Shown here in pieces: positions 1 through 10,382 of a stretch of DNA of 64,000 nt. The notes beneath the pieces were generated by a model. It was not told where the DNA came from. It saw nothing but the letters and a program-made list of their open reading frames with translations, and did no database searches. This DNA comes from Gammaproteobacteria bacterium. GTDB lineage: Bacteria > Pseudomonadota > Gammaproteobacteria > SZUA-152. Position numbers and translations under genes: made by a program. The stretch is from assembly GCA_021648485.1 (NCBI GenBank), contig JAKISS010000002.1:14443-78442 (forward strand). Direction: 5' to 3'. How positions within the stretch are numbered: the first letter of the stretch is position 1; the number at the start of each line of letters is the position of its first letter.

Positions 1-3000
1 ATTCACCTGACAATACATTCAGATGTTTTTCAATTTTATATTGTTCCCCTTCAATGACAATTATTTGGTCTGGAAGCGATGAGAAACCTTCGCTTAGCAT
101 TTTATCGAAAATGGAGATACCTCTCTCACTTTCCAGCGCCTTCATTCCAAACACATCCCACAAATGTTCTTCTTCCTCCTTGATCACCCCGATTCCACCG
201 TTTTTCCATAACGGCCAGTTTATTGCAATGGTTTTTCCTGTTCGCTCGTCCTTCTCCAGCAAGTGATTCCTATGCGATGAAAACTCATCCAGGAAACTGT
301 TTGCTACGGCATAATCACACTGCCCCTGATTGGGCATAATGGAAGCAATTGATGAAAATAAAACGAAAAAGTCCAGCTGATCCTGACTGGTTGCCTTGTC
401 CAGGTTAACTGTGCCTATTATTTTTGGTGAAACAACGTTGTCAAATGATTCCCCGGTTTTATGGATGATGTAAGAATCCTCAATCAAACCGGCACAATTA
501 AGCACACCATTTAGCTGAACATCTTCTGTTCGGATTTCCTGACAAACATTAATCAACGCGGCTTCATTGTTGATATCGACAGAATAATATTTCCCATCGC
601 CACCGAGATGGCGAAGCTGAGCAAGCTTTGTTTCAATATTATCGTTTATTTTTGAGCGTCCCATCAGGATCAATCGCGCGCCATAGTTCCTGGCAAGATG
701 CTGGGCAAAAAGATACCCTAATCCTCCTGCACCGCCTGCAATCAAATACGTTCCATTTTGTTTAATCAAGGATTTATCCAGCGTTGCAGAAAAAATCTCA
801 TGGCGCACCATCAAACGGACTTTCCGCTGCCCATTAACGTAGCGCACTTCGGTGAGAGGTGTATTTCGATAAAAACCCAGTTCCTGAGACACCACGCCAG
901 CGATTTTTTCCGGACTATGCTCATCCAGCCCCACAGAGGTAATATTGATGTTCGGGTTTTCAAATGTCAGTGTTCTTGAAAAGCCACCCACTGATGCATG
1001 CAGACATGTTTCTACAGAGTCCCGGACAGGATATAGATATAATATACGCACACGATGCGATAACTTGGCCAGCATCAGAGATTGCGTTAATGTCAACAAT
1101 AATTTTACGCCTAAATCAATATTTTGTGCTATTGGCGAAGCGTTTTTATAATTAACTTTATAATTCCATTTATATATTATTGCTTCCGCTTCTATTCCCT
1201 GTTTTTTAACGGCATCCCATAATAATTTAAACGAATCACTCTTTTTATGATTAATCGTATAAGTGTTTTTTCCAGTTTGCTTAAATTTATTTCCCGTCTT
1301 TACCAGAATTATATGTTTATATCTTCCTGTTTTTCGCAAAAATGTCGATAACGATGGATTAGTATCAAAAATAATAATGGATGAGGTGTTTTCATTGTGC
1401 ATTCCTGACTTTCTCGGAATCCACTGCGGCGTGTAATGAAATATATTATTTTCCATAATGTTCTTTTCATTATTTGTAGACATTTTATGTGCAGGTGCAT
1501 CACCTGATACCACCAATGGCGAATATTCACGTTTAACAAATTCCAAAAATTCAACAATGATATTTCCTTGTTGGTCACACAAATACATATTAAAGGATGC
1601 TTGATCATCATCTATTGATTTACTGTTTATGGCTGAATATACATAACATTGCTTCGGAATATTTCCGTGTATTTTGATTGTTTTCAGATGGAAAGGAACT
1701 TTTTGCTCCTGCTTTTTTTCTGTATTCAATATCTGTAGAGCAACAACGGACTGAAAAACCCCATCGAGCATGGATGGTTCCAGCAGGTTATCAGCCGAAA
1801 CAGTGATGTCCGGAGATTGCTTTAATTCACATAATATTTCCGTTTTATTGTAGTAACAAGACTTTATGCTTTGAAAGGTATCACCATAGGTCAATCCATT
1901 TTGTATAAACTGCTGATACAATGCCTGATGTTCCAACGTTAACTGGCATCGCATCCTTATTTTTCCAATATCAAGTCGGCGCAGTGGTTTTTCCTGATGA
2001 CCGGTAATGATAGCTCCCGTACAATAAACTTCATCACCTTTTACCAGTGAGAGGTTATGGCTTTTATCAGAATCTCCTCGGGTATATTTCACATTAAGGT
2101 GAACATCCTGCTCCACCTTAATGGCTTTCGCCCAATAAATATCCTTTAATATCCGGACAGGTTTCCGGCTTATTTTTTCTCCTGCCACTTGAAAAATATC
2201 CAGACACTTGACTCCGGGAACAATACTCACCCCTTTGACAATATGATCACGTATAAAATAATCGGATTTTGAAAATGTCTGGGAGATAAGAGAATGTCCC
2301 TCTTTTCCATTTAATATCCGTTCTTTGTTTTCTTCCAGACGGGGAAACCAGCAATGTCGCTTTTGGAACGGATATACCGGTAACTGAATCCTGTTTCCTT
2401 TCTGACATTGAACAATATCTTTCCAGTCAACAGCACCGCCCTTCGCCCAATATTCAACCGTCTCATCAATGTTATGGCTGTCAAAAACCGGTGAAGGGAA
2501 TGGAGATTTTTTGTCTTCGCCTGCATCACCAACAAATACCTGGTTATTTCGATTATTTTCGGTGAAATCCTGCAACCCCCTCAGTAATTTCTGATAATCA
2601 TCGACTAAAAATGCAACCCGTTTTTCCAATGCTTCACGGCCATTTTGCAGGGTAAAACATATATCAGAAATAGAACAACGTCCGTCTTTCCTGTTCAGAT
2701 ATTTGTAAAGTGATACAACATATTCATTTAACTGCTCACTTGTTTTCGCAGAAACCGGGACGATATATTTTTTATCGGTTTTTGACCGTTTTCCTGCGGG
2801 TAGTGATTTATTGTTTCTGTCAAAGAGAGGTGGTTCCTCTACTATCACATGTGCATTGACGCCTCCCATTCCAAAAGAGCTAATACCTGCTCGTAACGGG
2901 TACTCAACACCATCCAGTCTGATGTTATTCCATTCCTGATGCTCATCGACAATATAAAATGGGCTGCCATCCAGTTTGATGTAAGGGTTTAGTGCTTCAA

Positions 3001-4153
3001 AATGCAGTAATGCCGGTATCTTTTTATATTTAAAACCCAGCAACACCTTAATAAGTCCCGCGACACCCGCTGCACTTTCAAGATGACCGACATTCGTCTT
3101 GGTTGAAGTCAAACCACAAAACGGGGATTCATCACCCTTCAAATACGGCTGATAAGCCTGTTTCAGTGCATTAATTTCAACAGGGTCTCCGAGCGGAGTA
3201 CCCGTGCCATGTGTTTCAATATAACCAATGGTTTTTGGATTAACATCAGCAGCAGTAATCGCAGCACTGATGGTGGAAGCCTGCGCAGACACTTTGGGGG
3301 CCGTTAAAAAATTGGATCGCCCACCGTGCTTTACTGCGGAACCCTTGATGACTCCCAGGACATTATCTTTATCGGATATTGCCTGGGCCAGAGATTTTAT
3401 GAAGACGACGCCAACACCCTCGCCTCTTACGTATCCATTGGCTTTGGCATCAAATGACCTGCACTGACCATCCTCTGACAACATGCCGGACTTGCTGTGC
3501 GAGATATACATCGTTGGACTGAGAATCGTATTGACTCCGCCAACAACAGCCGCTTCACAAAACCCGTTGTTAATATCATTAACAGCATTATCCAAAGCCA
3601 CCAAAAAGCTGGAGCATGCCGTATCAACCACTTCACTTTTTCCTTGGAAATCCAGTAACCAGGATACACGATTGGCCAAAATTGAATGCACTGTGCCTGT
3701 TGATAAAAAAGAAATAATCGGTACTTTCTGTTCTCTCATCAGTTCTGCATAATCATTTTTCGATACGCCGGCATATACCCCAATATCCCTTCCTGCCAGA
3801 CCTGCCGGGTTATACCCTGCATCTTCAATGGCATGCCATGTGGACTCCAGAAAAAGTCTGTGCTGTGGGTCCATATAACCGGCTTCACGGGGGGATATTT
3901 TGAAAAAAAGCGGATCAAATTTATCGACATCTTCAATAAACCCACCATATTTTATGTTTGTCTTGCTATCTTCACTGGCAGGGTCTCCATAATAATCTTC
4001 CCAGAGCCATCGATCTTTCGGTATTTCACCCACACAATTTTTTCCGGCAATTAAATTGTCCCAGTATTCTTCATAATTTCTCGCGCCCGGAAATCGGCAA
4101 GCCATTCCAATAATGGCAATATCATCATTTTTCCTGCTATTTTTTACTTTCAT
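1..4153 (-). CDS. Modular type I polyketide synthase, AT-less (trans-AT-type) module KS-DH-KR; N-terminal ~1384 codons only, continues past window start
   Basis: Absent from the ORF track because no stop codon lies inside the window. An ORF ending at any in-frame stop would have been listed, so the frame is open from ATG 4153-4151 to base 1. My translation starts MKVKNSRKNDDIAIIGMACRFPGA. KS motifs: DTACSS (Cys codon 3614-3616), ETHGTGTPLGDP (His codon 3209-3211), NVGHLESAAG. A ~190-aa post-KS linker ends LPVYPFQKRHCWF and has no GHSxG acyltransferase motif. DH motif HIVKGVSIVPG (His codon 2243-2245). KR Rossmann GGAGGLG (716-736) and YAVAN. Confidence 0.9.
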   Translation of the reverse strand, partial: MKVKNSRKNDDIAIIGMACRFPGARNYEEYWDNLIAGKNCVGEIPKDRWLWEDYYGDPASEDSKTNIKYGGFIEDVDKFDPLFFKISPREAGYMDPQHRLFLESTWHAIEDAGYNPAGLAGRDIGVYAGVSKNDYAELMREQKVPIISFLSTGTVHSILANRVSWLLDFQGKSEVVDTACSSFLVALDNAVNDINNGFCEAAVVGGVNTILSPTMYISHSKSGMLSEDGQCRSFDAKANGYVRGEGVGVVFIKSLAQAISDKDNVLGVIKGSAVKHGGRSNFLTAPKVSAQASTISAAITAADVNPKTIGYIETHGTGTPLGDPVEINALKQAYQPYLKGDESPFCGLTSTKTNVGHLESAAGVAGLIKVLLGFKYKKIPALLHFEALNPYIKLDGSPFYIVDEHQEWNNIRLDGVEYPLRAGISSFGMGGVNAHVIVEEPPLFDRNNKSLPAGKRSKTDKKYIVPVSAKTSEQLNEYVVSLYKYLNRKDGRCSISDICFTLQNGREALEKRVAFLVDDYQKLLRGLQDFTENNRNNQVFVGDAGEDKKSPFPSPVFDSHNIDETVEYWAKGGAVDWKDIVQCQKGNRIQLPVYPFQKRHCWFPRLEENKERILNGKEGHSLISQTFSKSDYFIRDHIVKGVSIVPGVKCLDIFQVAGEKISRKPVRILKDIYWAKAIKVEQDVHLNVKYTRGDSDKSHNLSLVKGDEVYCTGAIITGHQEKPLRRLDIGKIRMRCQLTLEHQALYQQFIQNGLTYGDTFQSIKSCYYNKTEILCELKQSPDITVSADNLLEPSMLDGVFQSVVALQILNTEKKQEQKVPFHLKTIKIHGNIPKQCYVYSAINSKSIDDDQASFNMYLCDQQGNIIVEFLEFVKREYSPLVVSGDAPAHKMSTNNEKNIMENNIFHYTPQWIPRKSGMHNENTSSIIIFDTNPSLSTFLRKTGRYKHIILVKTGNKFKQTGKNTYTINHKKSDSFKLLWDAVKKQGIEAEAIIYKWNYKVNYKNASPIAQNIDLGVKLLLTLTQSLMLAKLSHRVRILYLYPVRDSVETCLHASVGGFSRTLTFENPNINITSVGLDEHSPEKIAGVVSQELGFYRNTPLTEVRYVNGQRKVRLMVRHEIFSATLDKSLIKQNGTYLIAGGAGGLGYLFAQHLARNYGARLILMGRSKINDNIETKLAQLRHLGGDGKYYSVDINNEAALINVCQEIRTEDVQLNGVLNCAGLIEDSYIIHKTGESFDNVVSPKIIGTVNLDKATSQDQLDFFVLFSSIASIMPNQGQCDYAVANSFLDEFSSHRNHLLEKDERTGKTIAINWPLWKNGGIGVIKEEEEHLWDVFGMKALESERGISIFDKMLSEGFSSLPDQIIVIEGEQYKIEKHLNVLSGE

Positions 4154-4162
4154 AATTAATTT

Positions 4163-5536
4163 TCAATTTGTGATTTTTTCATTGACAAGCTGCTCCGGGG
4201 GAATATTCTCAGGTGAGTAATCCGCAAACCCGTCATCTTTGAGTCTGCCGACAACATACACTTCACCTTTTTTTATGAACCCCAGGTCACCCGTGCTTAG
4301 GTACGGTCCATCACCAGAGTCTTCAAGATAAATATTGAACGATTTTTCTGTTTCTTCAGGTTTATTCCAATAACCCATTGCATTACACTGACTACTGACC
4401 AGAATTTCCCCTGTCTCCATATCATTACTTCTTATTCGAGTCCCTGGAACAACAATCACCACCTGTGCATCAATCACTGCTAACCCAGAACTGATCGTCT
4501 TGAGTTTTTCATCGCTACTCTGGTTTTTTACTGACGCTACATAAGGAGACTCTGCCAGTCCATAAACAGGTTTCAAAGCTGTTTTTTTCAGACCGCAGTG
4601 CCTAAATTTTTCAAAAAAACCATTCATCGTTTCTTTTTTTATAGGCTCGCCACTGTTATATGCCGTATTCCATTTGGATAAATTCAGATTCTGTCGGGAA
4701 TCCAGTGACTGATCAATACACATACCATAGGCAAAGTTGGGCGCCCCACTGAATGTAATATCGTATCGGGTAATTGCATTCAGCCAGCCATGCGGATTTT
4801 TATAAAAATCAAACAGAGAAAACATATACCCTTTGTAACCACAATAAAGTGGCTGAAGAATACCGAAAACCAGGCCTAGATAATGATAATGAGGAAGCCA
4901 GTTCATTGACCGGCTTGACACTGTCAGCTTGTACTGTCGTTCAATACACTTATGTACATTCCTAATATTGTCATGACTGATCATGACAATATTAGGAATC
5001 CCTTTTTTAGCTGATGTCCGTTGTAGATAAGCAATATTGTGACTTTTTATCAATGGCATGGACCAATGCGCTATTAAATCACTTGCTATGTCTTCAACAG
5101 ATAAAAAAACTTTTTTGGATAATGTTTTTGAATTGAAAAAATACTGCACGACGTCATCAAAAATTGATGCACTCGTAAGAACAATATTGATATTCGCTTT
5201 TTCAATTATATTTCTGATATGGGATAGCTGATCCCCACTGTGCCGAGTGTCACCAAGTGGCGGTGCTGTTGTTACTGGAATCGCACCACTGTACATCGCT
5301 CCCATAAAGGCATAAATAAACTCCACTCCCTGAGGAAAAAGCAATAAAACTCTATCTGATGGAGAGATTATTTGTTGCAGCCTTCCTGCAACTGCTGCTG
5401 CCCGGATATGCAACTGTTGATTGGATAACTGAGACACAACATTGCATTGATCATCCAAATAAGAGAACGCAATATTCTCTGGAGCGTATTCCGCCCTCAT
5501 GATCAGCGTTTCAACCAGATTAGTTGCTTCCTGCAT
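4163..5536 (-). CDS. Fatty acyl-AMP ligase (FAAL)-like adenylation N-domain, lacking the C-terminal subdomain
   Basis: 457-aa ORF with FAAL-type motifs WLPHYHYLGL, SGAPNFAY, YGLAESP, TGDLGF, GRLKD. The protein ends 23 aa after the GRLKD hinge. The P-loop position reads RTSAKKGIPN instead of the usual YTSGSTGxPK. Confidence 0.8.
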   Translation of the reverse strand: MQEATNLVETLIMRAEYAPENIAFSYLDDQCNVVSQLSNQQLHIRAAAVAGRLQQIISPSDRVLLLFPQGVEFIYAFMGAMYSGAIPVTTAPPLGDTRHSGDQLSHIRNIIEKANINIVLTSASIFDDVVQYFFNSKTLSKKVFLSVEDIASDLIAHWSMPLIKSHNIAYLQRTSAKKGIPNIVMISHDNIRNVHKCIERQYKLTVSSRSMNWLPHYHYLGLVFGILQPLYCGYKGYMFSLFDFYKNPHGWLNAITRYDITFSGAPNFAYGMCIDQSLDSRQNLNLSKWNTAYNSGEPIKKETMNGFFEKFRHCGLKKTALKPVYGLAESPYVASVKNQSSDEKLKTISSGLAVIDAQVVIVVPGTRIRSNDMETGEILVSSQCNAMGYWNKPEETEKSFNIYLEDSGDGPYLSTGDLGFIKKGEVYVVGRLKDDGFADYSPENIPPEQLVNEKITN

Positions 5537-6724
5537 TATGTTTTCTCACTCAACCTTATCAGCAGAAAACAGTATTTTAAATATCATATTTTTCTCCATA
5601 AAAATATCCGGTATCTATCAAAGATGCTATAAAATATGACCCATACATAATCCAATGATATGAAATAAAAACATTAGAAAAACATAATACCGAGATAAAT
5701 TATGAATCGATATAGTTCTTGTTAACGCGAAACAATATAAAGACGTTCCACTTCAATAATAAAATATTGTAAGTATTACTATATTGATAGTGGACACCAT
5801 TAAAAAATATCTGTTACCTAATATCGGTTTTTTCTACGTATACACAAAGAGATGTCGGCGAAGAATTATCCAGGATTAATCGCATTTTTTAACGGTATTC
5901 AGAGATCACTTTGAATAATTGATCCCTCTACTGCGTTATTGACTTTTTCTATCAATGACACTTGATCCGCAATTTCACCACTTTCACTGAAGCAATCATT
6001 ACGTTAAGGAATGGAAATTAAATAAGTTATATAATTAGCATCTCTAATCTATTATTTTTCGGGGGAACAGACATCGCTGTTTCAGTACTTTTCCTTATAC
6101 TTAAATATTAACATTTATTAATATGTGATATATAACGCTTTCAATCTAACGATATTTAGCTTTACTTTTCAACGAAAACCTAAAACCCATACCACGAAAG
6201 GTGCAACAAACCATTAATCGGTTATGTGCCTCTTTTACTCCCCCCACTTGTTGCATACTATCTATAATTCAAAAATACGCAATCCATGTCATTTGTCCAT
6301 TCTTGCTCTTTTTGTTTAAAAACCATCATACGACATACAACATTAATATCTGGTAATACATCACTCAAGCCATCGATGACGGGTGTATTTCTTCAATAAT
6401 CATAAAGTTCCCTCAATGATGCCTCTCGATATCTTCGAAAAATGTTAATCTCAAATACCTTCAGACACATAACAACTTACAAAGGAACAACTTTCGCTGC
6501 TTCTTATTCTTCCTCGAAAAGTATTTTTATCGTTGGTTTTTCCGGATTTGTTGAAATGGGACACAACAATGCTGAGGTGTCTGAAAATTCAACCCCTTTG
6601 CTGGTTTATACTGACATCTGGTTACTCTGGTTTTGTTTTCCTGCGAGATTCCAAACAGCGGAAATCCAATGAGTTGGAGATTTGTTGACGTGTTAACGAA
6701 TAACCACTGTCGGCGAATAGATTC

Positions 6725-7318
6725 CTACACACTTTTTCGATTGAGAAAAACGAGTTGAAAACAATCTGATTCGTAGCGAACTCTGCTCAGGCCTGCATTA
6801 ACCACCTGAATACGGTAAACCGCCATTGCTGGAATATCCAAAACATGTGCCATAATGGCCCGGATCACTCCAGCATGCGCCACCACCAGCACATGCTGAC
6901 CGGAAAAATCAGCCACAATGGTTTTAAGCGCACTGGATACGCGCGCAAAAAATACATCTAACGGCTCTGCTCCTGGCGGGCGATTACTCACCGGGTCGCG
7001 ATAAAAAGCTTGATAGTCAGATAACTCACGGGCTTGTATCTCGTCATGGGTCAGACCCTCCCAGCTCCCAAAGCCGACCTCTTTTAACCGGTCATCTATC
7101 CGTACCGGAACATGGTGCTGTTGATTCAGCTCATCTGCAAAAGCATGACAGCGAACAAGTGGCGACGACACAATCTGTGTCCACGGGCAACCACTTTCCA
7201 CCACCCGGCGCATTTGCGTCCACCCCTTTTCACTCAGTACATCGTCAATGGAATGCCCGCGAAAACGACGGCCACCTTCTGGTTCTCCATGGCGAATAAA
7301 ATCAATGACTGTTTCCAT
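6725..7318 (-). CDS. Histidine phosphatase family protein (phosphoglycerate mutase / CobC-like)
   Basis: N-terminal FIRHGEP (RHG catalytic motif) and a later VVAHAGVIRA (second His); 197 aa. Confidence 0.8.
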   Translation of the reverse strand: METVIDFIRHGEPEGGRRFRGHSIDDVLSEKGWTQMRRVVESGCPWTQIVSSPLVRCHAFADELNQQHHVPVRIDDRLKEVGFGSWEGLTHDEIQARELSDYQAFYRDPVSNRPPGAEPLDVFFARVSSALKTIVADFSGQHVLVVAHAGVIRAIMAHVLDIPAMAVYRIQVVNAGLSRVRYESDCFQLVFLNRKSV

Positions 7319-7581
7319 GCTGTCATTCTGTCAAGACAATAACAGTAATACAATAAAAACGATTGCCATTTTCCGGCAGTCAGCTTCACATATACCTGAC
7401 TTTTATATGTTATTTTTCTCCACCTAAGAACGCCCGTTTTTGGTGCAAAGCATATCCCAACGTCAATAATAATAAGCCCCGGCATAAAGAGGTGATCTAC
7501 CCTCACAGGTACCAGCTGATATAATATGCGCAACTACTATCGGACTGCCGCGTCCCGCGCAGTAACTTTCAGGAGTAAAAT

Positions 7582-8406
7582 ATGAATCAAAAAACTCACG
7601 ACGATATTCGCCAGCATGTGCGTGACAGCTATGCAGAGGTGGCCGAAGCCAGCAACAACAGCAACGGCTGCGGCGTGGAAAGCAGTTGCTGCGGCGTGTC
7701 GGATGACGAGGCCATTAATACCATCATCTCCACTCGCCTGGGCTATTCAACTGATGAACGCGGCAGTGTGCCCGAAGGTGCTGACATGGGTCTGGGTTGC
7801 GGCAACCCGCGTGCCATTGCCAGCCTCAAACCCGGTGAAGTGGTGGTGGATCTCGGCAGTGGCGGCGGCTTTGATGCTTTTCTCGCCGCACAGGAAGTCG
7901 GTGAAAATGGCCGCGTCATCGGCATTGACATGACACCCACCATGCTCAGCAAGGCACGCACCAATGCTGAAAAAGGCAAATACACACAGGTAGAGTTCCG
8001 GCTGGGTGAAATAGAACATCTGCCCGTAGCTGACAACTCCATTGACGTGATTATGTCCAACTGTGTTATCAACCTTTCTCCCAATAAATTACAGGTCTTT
8101 CGTGATGCCCTGCGCATCCTCAAACCCGGTGGTCGTCTGGCCATTTCCGATATCGTCGCCAGCGCCGAGATGCCGGAAGACATGAAAAATGACCCTATAC
8201 TGCATGCAGGTTGCATGGCGGGTGCCGAACTGGTCGATGATTTAAAAGCGATGATGAGCGAAGCAGGTTTTGAGAATATCCGCATCGCACCAAAAGACGA
8301 GTCCAAAGATTTTATTAAAGACTGGGCACCGGGACGCGGCGTCGAGGACTATGTGCTATCTGCCACCATTGAAGCCGTTAAACCGGGCGGAGGGTGTTGC
8401 TGCTGA
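7582..8406 (+). CDS. arsM: Arsenite S-adenosylmethionine methyltransferase
   Basis: SAM fold VVDLGSGGGFD. Conserved Cys positions: N-terminal SSCCGV, LGCGNP, SNCVINL, HAGCMAGA. Cys-rich C-terminus GGGCCC. RBS AGGAG lies upstream of the ATG. Confidence 0.85.
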   Translation: MNQKTHDDIRQHVRDSYAEVAEASNNSNGCGVESSCCGVSDDEAINTIISTRLGYSTDERGSVPEGADMGLGCGNPRAIASLKPGEVVVDLGSGGGFDAFLAAQEVGENGRVIGIDMTPTMLSKARTNAEKGKYTQVEFRLGEIEHLPVADNSIDVIMSNCVINLSPNKLQVFRDALRILKPGGRLAISDIVASAEMPEDMKNDPILHAGCMAGAELVDDLKAMMSEAGFENIRIAPKDESKDFIKDWAPGRGVEDYVLSATIEAVKPGGGCCC

Positions 8407-8435
8407 CACCATAATCAATTTAATGCCGGACAATA

Positions 8436-8480
8436 AACGGGGTCTCGTCACGGATAAACGACGAGACCCCGTTCTTTTTT
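8436..8480 (+). terminator. Rho-independent terminator of arsM
   Basis: 13-bp stem aacggggtctcgt / acgagaccccgtt followed by a T run (8475-8480). Confidence 0.8.
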
Positions 8481-8509
8481 CAGTCCTTCAAATCACCCGT
8501 ACATTTCAA

Positions 8510-8684
8510 CCTAAATTAATCAGTTAAACCATAGCGAGAGCGACTAAGATGCGGAAGATAAAGCGTTTTTCAAGTTATTTTGGACGAAAGCGTATCACCC
8601 ATACGGTGAGTTCAACATGTTCTGAAAAACACTTTAGATTCTGTGTCTTAGGCGTTCGCAGTAGATTTAACTGATTAATTTAGG
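8510..8684. mobile_element. MITE family 1, full copy A (175 bp)
   Basis: Terminal inverted repeats cctaaattaatcagttaaac... / ...tttaactgattaatttagg. Flanked by the 5-bp direct repeat ttcaa (8505-8509 and 8685-8689). Near-identical to the copy at 56883..57057. Confidence 0.85.
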
Positions 8685-8870
8685 TTCAATCTTCCTGTCA
8701 TAAAACATGCGCCAATCCACCCTCTGAATATCTGAATCTAAAAAGTGAACAATTTGTGATTGATTCGTGATGTTTGGATCAGTTGCGCGATAGACACTAA
8801 CCGAGTTCGCACCCGCTCACACGGACAAGTGCGTAATAACAAAAACTCTCAATCAGCTCGGAGATTTAAA

Positions 8871-9629
8871 ATGACCGGAAACACAGATTCTACAGCCCGC
8901 AATGGCTTTCGCAAACATTCACTCGCACTGGCGCTAGCGGCCAGTCTCACCAGCGCTTTTGCTGCCAGCGCCACCCAGGCCGCAACCTGGGATGTCACCA
9001 TCACCAATCTCACCAATGGCAATCATTTCACGCCACTGCTGGTCACAGCCCACGACCATGGCACACACTTGTTCCAGGTAGGTATGCCCGCTACATTACC
9101 CATCGAGCACATGGCGGAATGTGGTCACCTCGACCCGTTGCTGGCAACACCTGAGGTCGGTGCTATTGATGCAGATACTATCGCCAACCCAGCCACCGGT
9201 CTGCTGGCTCCCGGTGCCAGCACCACAGCAATGCTGGTCACCACAGAAACCCATCTCAGTGTTGTCGCCATGGTATTACCCACCAACGACGCCTTCCTGG
9301 GACTGGAATCCCAGCACATTCCCAGCGAAGCCGGTACCTACACCTACTACGTCAATGCCTACGATGCCGGAACTGAAGCCAACGATGAAGTGTTAATGAC
9401 TGCGGGCGCTTGCTCATATACAGATATCGGCATGATGCCGGGTGCGCCCGGAATGGATGCGGGCACGAATGGAAGCGGTGTAGCAACAGCAGACAGTAAT
9501 ACCATGATTCATGTACATCGCGGCGTGTTGGGTGACCAGGATGCCATAGGTGGCAACAGTGATCTGGACAGCACCATCCACCGTTGGCAAAACCCGGTGG
9601 CTAAAATCACTGTCACCGTCACACCGTAA
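8871..9629 (+). CDS. Secreted spondin_N-like domain protein (paralog 1)
   Basis: The track ORF (8760) starts at TTG. I prefer ATG 8871, which is preceded by GGAGA. Signal peptide ALALAASLTSAFAASATQA. Motif WDVTITNLTNGNHFTPLLVTAHD is typical of bacterial spondin-domain proteins. Confidence 0.65.
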   Translation: MTGNTDSTARNGFRKHSLALALAASLTSAFAASATQAATWDVTITNLTNGNHFTPLLVTAHDHGTHLFQVGMPATLPIEHMAECGHLDPLLATPEVGAIDADTIANPATGLLAPGASTTAMLVTTETHLSVVAMVLPTNDAFLGLESQHIPSEAGTYTYYVNAYDAGTEANDEVLMTAGACSYTDIGMMPGAPGMDAGTNGSGVATADSNTMIHVHRGVLGDQDAIGGNSDLDSTIHRWQNPVAKITVTVTP

Positions 9630-9641
9630 AGGAGGGATGTT

Positions 9642-10382
9642 ATGCGACTCTTTCAACAAAAACGACATTCATGCTTGTCATCTTATCTGGCTGTCACTGT
9701 TACCTCCGCAACTCTGCTGATGCTCAGTGCCTGTGGAGATAGTAACAATGATGATAATGTCAGTAATAACAATGCCACTTACGACATTACGGTATACAAC
9801 CTTACCAATGGCCAACCCTTTACGCCTTTAGGCGTTATAGTACACGACTCCGCCTACGTGCCGTGGCAACTGGGTGAAACGGTTAGCACGGGTCTGGAAA
9901 CACTTGCTGAATCAGGTGATCCGTCAACCTTTCTCAGCGAAGCAAATGCCAATAATGCAGTAATAATGAGCACCAGCTCCAGCAACGGACCGTTCGGGCC
10001 AGGCAGCTCGGAAACGGTATCTATCACGGTTGATCACTCCGCAAGTTTGCAACTCACGGTGGCCAGCATGTTAGCCAATACCAATGATGCTTTTACCGGC
10101 ATACGTAATTGGAATATTGGTGAACTGGCCGTGGATGACAGCGTTTCAAGCGTGGCGCGTGTATACGATGCAGGCACTGAAGCCAATAGCGAAACCGCAG
10201 ACAGTATGCCGGGACCGGCAGCTATGGGCGAAGGTTTTAATGCTGCCCGGAATGACCTGGATCGACTGACTGTTCACAGCGGGGTAGTAACAGCCGACGA
10301 TGGCTTGCTGACATCAGCGCTCAATGAATCACATCGCTGGCTGGGTCAGGCAGCAAAGGTGGTGGTTACGCGGACACAGTAA
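9642..10382 (+). CDS. Spondin_N-like domain lipoprotein (paralog 2)
   Basis: Lipobox LLMLSAC. Motif YDITVYNLTNGQPFTPLGVIVHD parallels the upstream gene. Shared YDAGTEAN motif. Confidence 0.65.
   Translation: MRLFQQKRHSCLSSYLAVTVTSATLLMLSACGDSNNDDNVSNNNATYDITVYNLTNGQPFTPLGVIVHDSAYVPWQLGETVSTGLETLAESGDPSTFLSEANANNAVIMSTSSSNGPFGPGSSETVSITVDHSASLQLTVASMLANTNDAFTGIRNWNIGELAVDDSVSSVARVYDAGTEANSETADSMPGPAAMGEGFNAARNDLDRLTVHSGVVTADDGLLTSALNESHRWLGQAAKVVVTRTQ

Follow-up and report, generated by a model that had tools for sequence, protein, structure and literature searches.

What does a polyketide synthase (PKS) that opens directly with a ketosynthase (KS) belong to, and how is it primed? The question is raised by contig JAKISS010000002.1 of an uncultured marine gammaproteobacterium, of which a stretch of 64,000 nt ("the window") was analysed. 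At the left edge of the window a long reverse-strand reading frame encodes the beginning of such an enzyme, and immediately upstream lies a gene for a protein resembling fatty acyl-AMP ligases (FAALs). This second gene was overlooked in the original prediction made from the bare sequence, and it bears on how a KS-first enzyme is primed. Comparison with orthologous loci makes it highly probable that the frame is the beginning of PKS1, and that PKS1 is the first megasynthase in an uncharacterised trans-acyltransferase (trans-AT) PKS cluster on the chromosome, one with a decapitated FAAL loading module and the assembly line proposed below.

Translation of positions 1–4153 on the reverse strand yields 1384 stop-free codons from an ATG at 4153–4151, with the frame still open at the window edge. 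The coding part (2–4153) represents the N-terminal 1384 residues (~43%) of PKS1, as judged from the translation, Pfam and orthologue alignment, and all 1384 residues match the first part of 3200-aa open reading frames (ORFs) at the orthologous loci L005 and L002 with 88–89% amino acid identity. It is the largest coding stretch in the window, as originally predicted, followed by PolA (913 aa), and is missing from the ORF list because it runs past the edge. KS1 occupies residues 10–440 (2834–4126, reverse strand, as are all PKS1 and FAAL-like features below). It is defined by Pfam (match at residues 10–386, E 4e-88 and 2e-36), by motifs and by best PDB matches to trans-AT KSs, and nothing, neither an acyl carrier protein (ACP) nor a loading domain, stands ahead of it. 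A KS C-terminal extension with a RhiE-like/CurL-like KS-AT linker is placed by Pfam at residues 389–533. The post-KS linker as a whole (residues 441–617; 2303–2833) matches PF22336, PF22621 and PF16197 and lacks PF00698; the linker remnant is seen at residues 463–533 (RhiE-like PF22336, 58 bits, and PF22621), with the RhiE-like/CurL-like stub at residues 468–533 (2555–2752). A canonical dehydratase, DH1 (residues 618–872; 1538–2302; Pfam and motifs), is followed by a ketoreductase, KR1, with the structural subdomain PF21394 at residues 925–1081 (911–1381; Pfam) and the catalytic subdomain at residues 1134–1317 (203–754; Pfam and motifs).

Pfam and motif inspection agree with the earlier description of a KS-DH-KR module with intact catalytic residues. 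The motif coordinates quoted there are exact: Cys180 at 3614–3616 (DTACSS), His315 at 3209–3211 (HGTGT), the DH His637 at 2243–2245 (HxxxGxxxxP), and the KR GGAGGLG at 716–736. The triad of KS1 is complete (Cys180/His315/His357, the last in NVGH), and KS1 is on this basis predicted to be competent for elongation. DH1 carries Asp797/Gln801 in its second motif, DxxxQ (LDGVFQ). KR1 contains the Rossmann motif GGAGGLG, the Lys (PKIIG), the Ser (FSSIAS) and the Tyr/Asn (YAVAN). At the position of the LDD motif it reads 'LIED', which by established KR motif rules indicates a B-type KR and so a predicted stereochemistry for its product.

The assignment to the trans-AT class depends first on the absence of an embedded AT. 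Only ~177 residues separate KS1 from DH1 (estimated earlier at ~190), too short for an AT. A hidden Markov model scan of this region, which the original prediction had named as a test that could refute it, found none: there is no acyltransferase domain (PF00698, Acyl_transf_1) in the 1384-aa fragment by Pfam, even at E ≤ 0.01. The absence of a cis AT is thus observed directly in the PKS1 fragment, and the full PKS1, PKS2 and PKS3 of the orthologues contain no embedded AT either. In a PDB search, KS1 with its linker scores 390–880 bits against solved trans-AT KSs (7ZMA, PksJ 4NA1, the 'AT-less PKS' entries 4QYR/4ZDN/4TKT, and PksL), compared with at most 384 bits against cis-AT KSs (CurL, PikA, DEBS). 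The lack of a cis AT and the higher scores with trans-AT structures together support the trans-AT reading. Further traits of the class appear in the orthologues, namely discrete ATs, non-canonical modules, tandem ACPs and a trans-acting cassette built around an HMG-CoA synthase (HCS). The module layout there is odd, KS-DH-KR-ACP-DH-ACP-KS-DH-ACP-ACP in PKS1, with a PKS2 that opens with a DH and closes with a KS.

The rest of the cluster was pieced together from one metagenome scan, followed by walking out from the discrete AT. Among 185,579 species-representative genomes, six loci show 72–89% amino acid identity over all 1384 residues, every one of them in a metagenome-assembled genome (MAG), and syntenic orthologues are carried by approximately ten uncultured gammaproteobacterial MAGs and metagenome contigs. 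L002, L005 and L006 share the flank genes of the window at 80–95% identity as far as each locus reaches; these encode a phosphatase, an ArsM-like methyltransferase, two spondin-domain proteins, a histidine kinase and TrmO. The chain from complete clusters back to the window has two links. Over 2024 residues of PKS1, L005 has 97% identity to L007 and 86% to L010, and the KR region of the window matches these loci at 88% and 85%, respectively. Judged by these alignments, the chain of orthology is solid. L001 and L006 are short contigs with near-identical pieces of the cluster that are binned in MAGs labelled Chlorobiota and Cyclobacteriaceae; L006 also bears gammaproteobacterial flank genes, and the phylum labels most likely reflect mis-binning rather than transfer between phyla.

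The whole cluster spans ~31 kb in the orthologues. As the original prediction had placed it, its remainder lies to the left of the window: PKS1 continues, followed by PKS2 and PKS3, a β-branching cassette and two discrete ATs. Orthologous PKS1 is a complete ORF of ~3200 aa (KS-DH-KR-ACP, DH-ACP, KS-DH-ACP-ACP), and by alignment the window edge falls ~30 residues ahead of its first ACP. PKS2 (~2350 aa; DH-KS-(weak KR)-ACP-KS) follows directly. After PKS2 come a free ACP of 81–89 aa, a free KS with Cys replaced by Ser (GGASAS) that passes the curated PksF-type model PRK07103, an HMG-CoA synthase homologue (PF01154/PF08540), and two enoyl-CoA hydratase homologues (ECHs), one passing the PksH-type model PRK07112 and the other the PksI-type model PRK07110. 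AT1 (375 aa) passes the FabD model TIGR00128 (343 vs. 261 bits) and AT2 is a second, divergent discrete AT of 324 aa, after which a SULT-type sulfotransferase is encoded. PKS3, encoded between AT1 and AT2, is KS-ACP-KS-ACP-α/β hydrolase in one lineage (L014, 1825 aa) and ACP-KS-ACP-hydrolase in another (L015, 1148 aa), from which the related clusters are judged probably to make products differing by one extension unit. Of the parts that the original prediction had said should be sought, a discrete AT and ACPs are present in the orthologous clusters; no enoyl reductase was found there, and the terminal domain is a generic hydrolase in place of a classical thioesterase. The right-hand boundary of the cluster is set by downstream housekeeping genes, which differ between the two lineages. 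The product of the last cluster gene (L014 19113–20087; L015 17052–18020) is ~323–324 aa long, has an N-terminus that resembles a signal peptide, and is matched by nothing in Pfam, NCBIfam or the PDB. Its conservation far exceeds that of the biosynthetic genes, with 94% identity between L014 and L015, where the PKS and AT genes are only ~72–74% identical.

No characterised cluster with close similarity was found in homologue scans and the literature on trans-AT PKSs, MIBiG being outside this scope. This is in line with the original prediction, which had recognised none; no cluster of near identity has turned up. All close relatives are uncultured MAGs or metagenome contigs, and others are at most ~46% identical at the domain level. 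Nearly 8000 proteins match the 1384-aa fragment at E ≤ 1e-50. Searches with this and the PKS3 fragments gave distant multi-KS proteins of 30–50% identity, within a range that apparently extends to ~1.75 times the query length and leaves the 3200-aa orthologues outside. The locus is an orphan cluster of a known and very common class, and an ordinary member of the trans-AT PKSs.

A plausible course of synthesis can be drawn from this content. KS1 would most likely be primed directly by an acyl-CoA or acyl-ACP as starter unit, and would condense the acyl primer with a malonyl unit. The discrete FabD-type AT1 would malonylate the ACPs in trans, including ACP1 just past the window edge. The B-type KR would reduce the β-keto group and DH1 would dehydrate the product, giving an (E)-2-enoyl thioester after module 1. 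The proposed line would then run through PKS1 (KS-DH-KR-ACP, a His-only DH with ACP, and KS-DH(dead)-ACP-ACP), PKS2 (His-only DH-KS-(KR?)-ACP-KS) and PKS3 (KS-ACP-KS-ACP-hydrolase), with six KSs able to elongate. All six modular KSs of the orthologous line keep Cys-His-His. DH1 is the sole canonical dehydratase, as DH2 and DH4 keep the His with Thr/Ser replacing the Asp and DH3 lacks both residues; the His-only DHs may shift double bonds or be structural.

One modification of the chain is suggested by the tandem ACPs at the end of PKS1, the only ones with a Trp at Ser+6 (GLDSIVGVEW). This Trp flag is strongly predictive of β-branching sites, and the modules concerned typically have tandem ACPs (PMC10006238). 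The HCS β-branching set is complete in the orthologues, with a donor ACP, the Cys-to-Ser KS, HCS, ECH1, ECH2 and Trp-flagged acceptors, all outside the window. The cassette would add one β-branch on the tandem ACPs of the KS2 module. The terminal α/β hydrolase would release the chain and the SULT-type sulfotransferase would probably sulfate a hydroxyl. The predicted product is a small, unsaturated, β-branched and probably sulfated polyketide acid.

How the line is started is the more unusual question. The FAAL-like protein (457 aa; 4163–5536, reverse strand; MCF6336411.1, annotated 'AMP-binding protein') consists of an ANL N-terminal domain only, and its stop codon lies 9 nt ahead of the PKS ATG. 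It matches PF00501 with 137 bits and its best PDB match is the Legionella FAAL 3KXW (E 4.5e-73); the NCBIfam FAAL models all score far under their cutoffs (e.g. 254 vs. 775). The alignment to 3KXW ends at the hinge, residue 460 of 590, and the protein itself ends ~23 residues past the GRLKD hinge in the window and in six of six relatives. The P-loop is degenerate, reading TSAKKGIPNIV in the window and TSDKNRIPKFV in the relatives. The canonical pattern is TSGSTxxPKGV; 3KXW has TSGSTMHPKGV, and P0030, a trans-AT PKS that opens with a canonical FAAL, C-subdomain, ACP and KS, has TSGSTSAPKAA. The early stop recurs in all six relatives, as does the degenerate P-loop. By sequence alignment the window copy also lacks a segment of ~24 aa after YGLAES, a candidate for the FAAL-specific insertion, which is kept in the relatives and corresponds to residues 348–366 of 3KXW.

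The C-terminal subdomain of FAALs carries the catalytic Lys (A10) and also docks the ACP. With tblastn, no such subdomain was found elsewhere in the clusters or the window. Its supply in trans, together with an ACP, by the unannotated 324-aa protein or another ORF was considered and rejected, as tblastn gave only ACP-like pieces within the PKSs. The interval from the FAAL-like gene to KS1 encodes no ACP, and the sole free ACP is in the HCS cassette. On P0030 the FAAL-like protein aligns over residues 7–457 and KS1 from residue 697, so that ~240 residues, the C-terminal subdomain plus the ACP, are exactly what is missing. The gene would be the remnant of an ancestral FAAL-ACP loading module minus these two parts. 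An isolated FAAL N-domain, that of FadD23, is without ligase activity (PMC9989471), and forms that are truncated or inactive go unmentioned in a 2025 review on FAALs of natural-product pathways (PMC11837247). From its residues, the FAAL-like protein is probably no longer adenylating.

The gene nevertheless evolves under purifying selection (dN/dS 0.13–0.22), and this low ratio implies that the protein does something. The N-domain may be kept for a non-adenylating role, of which docking or substrate presentation are guesses. An exhaustive search of 1.84 billion representative proteins returned a single close relative (66% identity, 480 aa). Its score is 664 bits and the next is 411, and all others among the best 150 of 26,733 relatives are at least 562 aa long. 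The truncated gene thus appears, within this search, to be confined to the present clade. A tentative proposal, less likely than not, is that this pseudo-FAAL acts as a non-adenylating initiation factor, in primer binding and presentation or in docking, which replaces FAAL-ACP loading, and that the cluster makes a new sulfated, β-branched polyketide in uncultured gammaproteobacteria of vents. In the window the FAAL-like and PKS ORFs are in the same frame, with the TGA and three codons between (TGA AAA TTA ATT ATG, 4151–4165), and no obvious Shine-Dalgarno sequence was seen between the two ORFs. A read-through fusion was rejected, as relatives have the two ORFs in different frames, and the shared frame is probably a coincidence. 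Translational coupling of the two genes is likely.

Other accounts of the locus have to be weighed against this trans-AT cluster. The fragment might instead belong to a cis-AT or iterative lipid-type synthase, PUFA/PfaA-like or mycobacterial Pks-like, as its sub-threshold NCBIfam matches to PKS_plus_SDR, Pks2, Pks13 and PfaA and a FAAL-like neighbour typical of mycobacterial lipid PKSs would suggest. Those matches are far under their cutoffs, however (708 vs. 1740, 531 vs. 2400, 472 vs. 2100 and 347 vs. 1010), and are generic KS/KR similarity. For the PUFA synthases in particular, TIGR02813 reaches 347 bits against a cutoff of 1010 and both architecture and neighbours differ. With the AT domain absent, trans-AT KSs outscoring cis-AT ones, orthologues that carry discrete ATs, non-canonical modules and an HCS cassette, and no chain-length factor, FabA-type DH or enoyl reductase genes in the orthologous clusters, a lipid-type synthase is barely credible. 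Decay is another alternative, in which the loss of the FAAL C-terminal subdomain and the loading ACP left the PKS unprimed and drifting towards a pseudogene. Neither lost part is found anywhere else in the clusters, the P-loop is degenerate, and the copy in the window has suffered the further ~24-aa deletion and a palindrome that overwrites the P-loop remnant. Yet ORFs of 3200, 2350 and 1100–1800 aa are intact across several independent assemblies, and every catalytic motif of module 1 is preserved, as are all six KS triads. PKS1 is also under purifying selection among the orthologues, with dN/dS of 0.12–0.15 at dS up to 1.3, alongside the 0.13–0.22 of the FAAL-like gene, and a dead relic is on these grounds improbable.

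The trans-AT cluster with a decapitated loading module is the account retained here, and several points weigh against it or its details. Gene order may not equal the order in which modules are used, so that KS1 need not be first. It is unusual for a complete module to be followed at once by a DH-ACP unit that lacks an intervening KS0. The FAAL-like protein may have residual or altered catalysis. Placement of KS1 among trans-AT KSs rests on the ranking of PDB scores, and everything beyond residue 1384 of PKS1 is read from orthologues and not from this genome. The product may differ between lineages as PKS3 varies (1825 vs. 1148 aa), and the cluster is known here from sequence alone.

Whether the cluster is also a recent arrival is a separate matter. 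The PKS fragment has 40.8% GC (37.6% at third codon positions), the FAAL-like gene 40.2% and the adjoining spacer (5537–6724) 33.0%, against 49.4% for the other 57 kb. The AT-richness described in the original prediction is therefore real, with a contrast of ~9 points that is smaller than its spot counts (25–50% vs. 50–60%) had indicated. Its suggestion of horizontal acquisition is no more than plausible: the cluster has a composition of its own and occurs in two flanks, yet several relatives share one insertion site and no mobility genes, tRNA or boundary repeats were found. Entry into this genome by recent horizontal transfer would account for a cluster GC of 40–44% in every host against flank GC of 43–49%, for the presence of the cluster and its 74-nt element (see below) in one flank in the window, L002, L005 and L006 and in another in L004/L015, and for the junction at 3900–7500, which is 60–80% identical to L005/L002 where its sides are 85–95% identical, suggesting recombination. 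Relatives nonetheless share the insertion site (TrmO-histidine kinase-spondins-ArsM-phosphatase | cluster), with flank genes 82–95% identical, which implies that the cluster was present before these lineages split. No integrase, transposase, tRNA or flanking direct repeat was found at the boundary. By nucleotide comparison with L005/L002, the divergent tract (~3900–7500) covers the 5' end of the KS, the FAAL-like gene, the spacer and the phosphatase gene; as it takes in this chromosomal gene, homologous recombination fits better than fresh insertion. The tract looks like a product of homologous recombination with a more distant allele across the cluster/chromosome junction. The cluster fits a unit that moved at some time, and its recent acquisition as a genomic island is possible, if rather unlikely.

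The left boundary of the cluster is the AT-rich non-coding spacer at 5537–6724 (33% GC), delimited by composition and comparison. Within it lies a 74-nt core (6248–6321, reverse strand), recognised from nucleotide conservation, that hardly varies across the orthologous clusters, the one in another genomic flank included. It is situated ~710 nt upstream of the first gene and overlaps a 36-codon ORF. There is almost no synonymous change in the core where the PKS shows dS of 0.4–1.3, which implies that the constraint is at the nucleotide level and makes a small peptide gene unlikely. A structured RNA or tRNA was also rejected, as Rfam and tRNA searches gave no match, the predicted fold is weak and covariation is absent. 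A sigma-70 scan of the spacer element was not above chance. From its conservation and position the core is probably a promoter or operator of the cluster.

A second nucleotide feature lies inside the FAAL-like gene, where a perfect palindrome of 19+19 nt with a 4-nt loop (4958–4999) encodes the P-loop remnant, IPNIVMISHDNIRN. The corresponding RNA would fold with −27.5 kcal/mol (z −6.2), and the 64 kb contain no other perfect palindrome of at least 19 nt that has a short loop. Only this genome has the perfect form; the relatives pair 8–13 of the 19 arm positions. The substitutions that complete it come from both arms and include the Lys-to-Asn change of 'PK', which suggests a quasipalindrome template-switch mutation or selection for a hairpin or operator.

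The remainder of the window is ordinary chromosome, encoding PolA, UvrD, TrmO, TmcA, acetolactate synthase, cyclopropane fatty acid synthase and a diguanylate cyclase, and the close relatives of its housekeeping genes are found in metagenomes from hydrothermal vents. Neither a tRNA nor an Rfam match was found in the 64-kb window. At 7582–10382 a gene of the arsenite methyltransferase family (passing NF008823) is followed by two tandem spondin-domain genes, an order kept in L002 and L005. Between this ArsM-like methyltransferase gene and the first spondin-domain gene is a 24-nt inverted repeat, 96% complementary, with arms at 8505–8528 and 8666–8689 and 137 nt between them; the gap that holds it aligns poorly with L005/L002.

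Many bioactive polyketides are products of trans-AT PKSs, and as a source of them the uncultured Gammaproteobacteria of the sea have been little explored. The present cluster is compact (~31 kb, six KSs), is found in around ten environmental genomes and can be rebuilt in full from public contigs, which makes its synthesis and heterologous expression practicable. Its decapitated loading module is a natural experiment in how a modular PKS copes with the loss of its loading ACP, and poses a modest but testable question, whether a role other than catalysis can maintain an ANL N-domain. The general picture is unchanged by this locus, which is a correct annotation of an ordinary enzyme class and not a new kind of system.

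The nearest well-known counterpart is the bacillaene synthase (pksX/bae) of Bacillus, the textbook trans-AT PKS. In both, the KSs lack a cis AT and retain a stub of the KS-AT linker, the ATs are discrete and FabD-like, the branching module has tandem ACPs, and an AcpK/PksF/PksG/PksH/PksI-type cassette stands in the same gene order (ACP, Cys-to-Ser KS, HCS, ECH1, ECH2); the KSs of PksJ and PksL are among the best PDB matches. They differ in that KS identity is only ~40–46%, and in that the present cluster has no non-ribosomal peptide synthetase modules, another module set and offloading, and a sulfotransferase. Bacillaene synthase also has an intact adenylation-type loading part, which this cluster lacks. 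The best solved match of KS1 with its linker is the trans-AT PKS bimodule core of Brevibacillus brevis (7ZMA, 878 bits over two KSs), which comes from another organism and cluster, a similarity at the domain level with no bearing on the product.

The sulfotransferase gene near the terminal hydrolase recalls CurM and the olefin synthases (OLS), as OLS starts with a FAAL and curacin biosynthesis uses an HCS cassette. Sulfotransferase-thioesterase offloading to a terminal alkene was nevertheless rejected. The discrete sulfotransferase is SULT-type, with retinol dehydratase and aryl sulfotransferases as its best PDB matches and the CurM domain unmatched, the terminal hydrolase resembles generic esterases and not the CurM thioesterase, and PKS3 and the last modules lack a KR for the β-hydroxyl that the sulfotransferase would need.

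Stand-alone or fused FAALs occur in PKS pathways (PMC11837247), and the start of the line compares most directly with FAAL-ACP-KS loading modules. The whole N-domain of the FAAL-like protein aligns with them, at 33% identity to P0030 and 42% to the best megasynthase-borne FAALs, and KS1 aligns with the KS that follows the loading ACP of P0030 at 46%. Here, by contrast, the C-terminal subdomain with its catalytic Lys motif and the ACP are missing, the P-loop is degenerate and the remaining domain is a separate ORF. In an otherwise ordinary trans-AT PKS, this conserved decapitated loading module is the unusual part.

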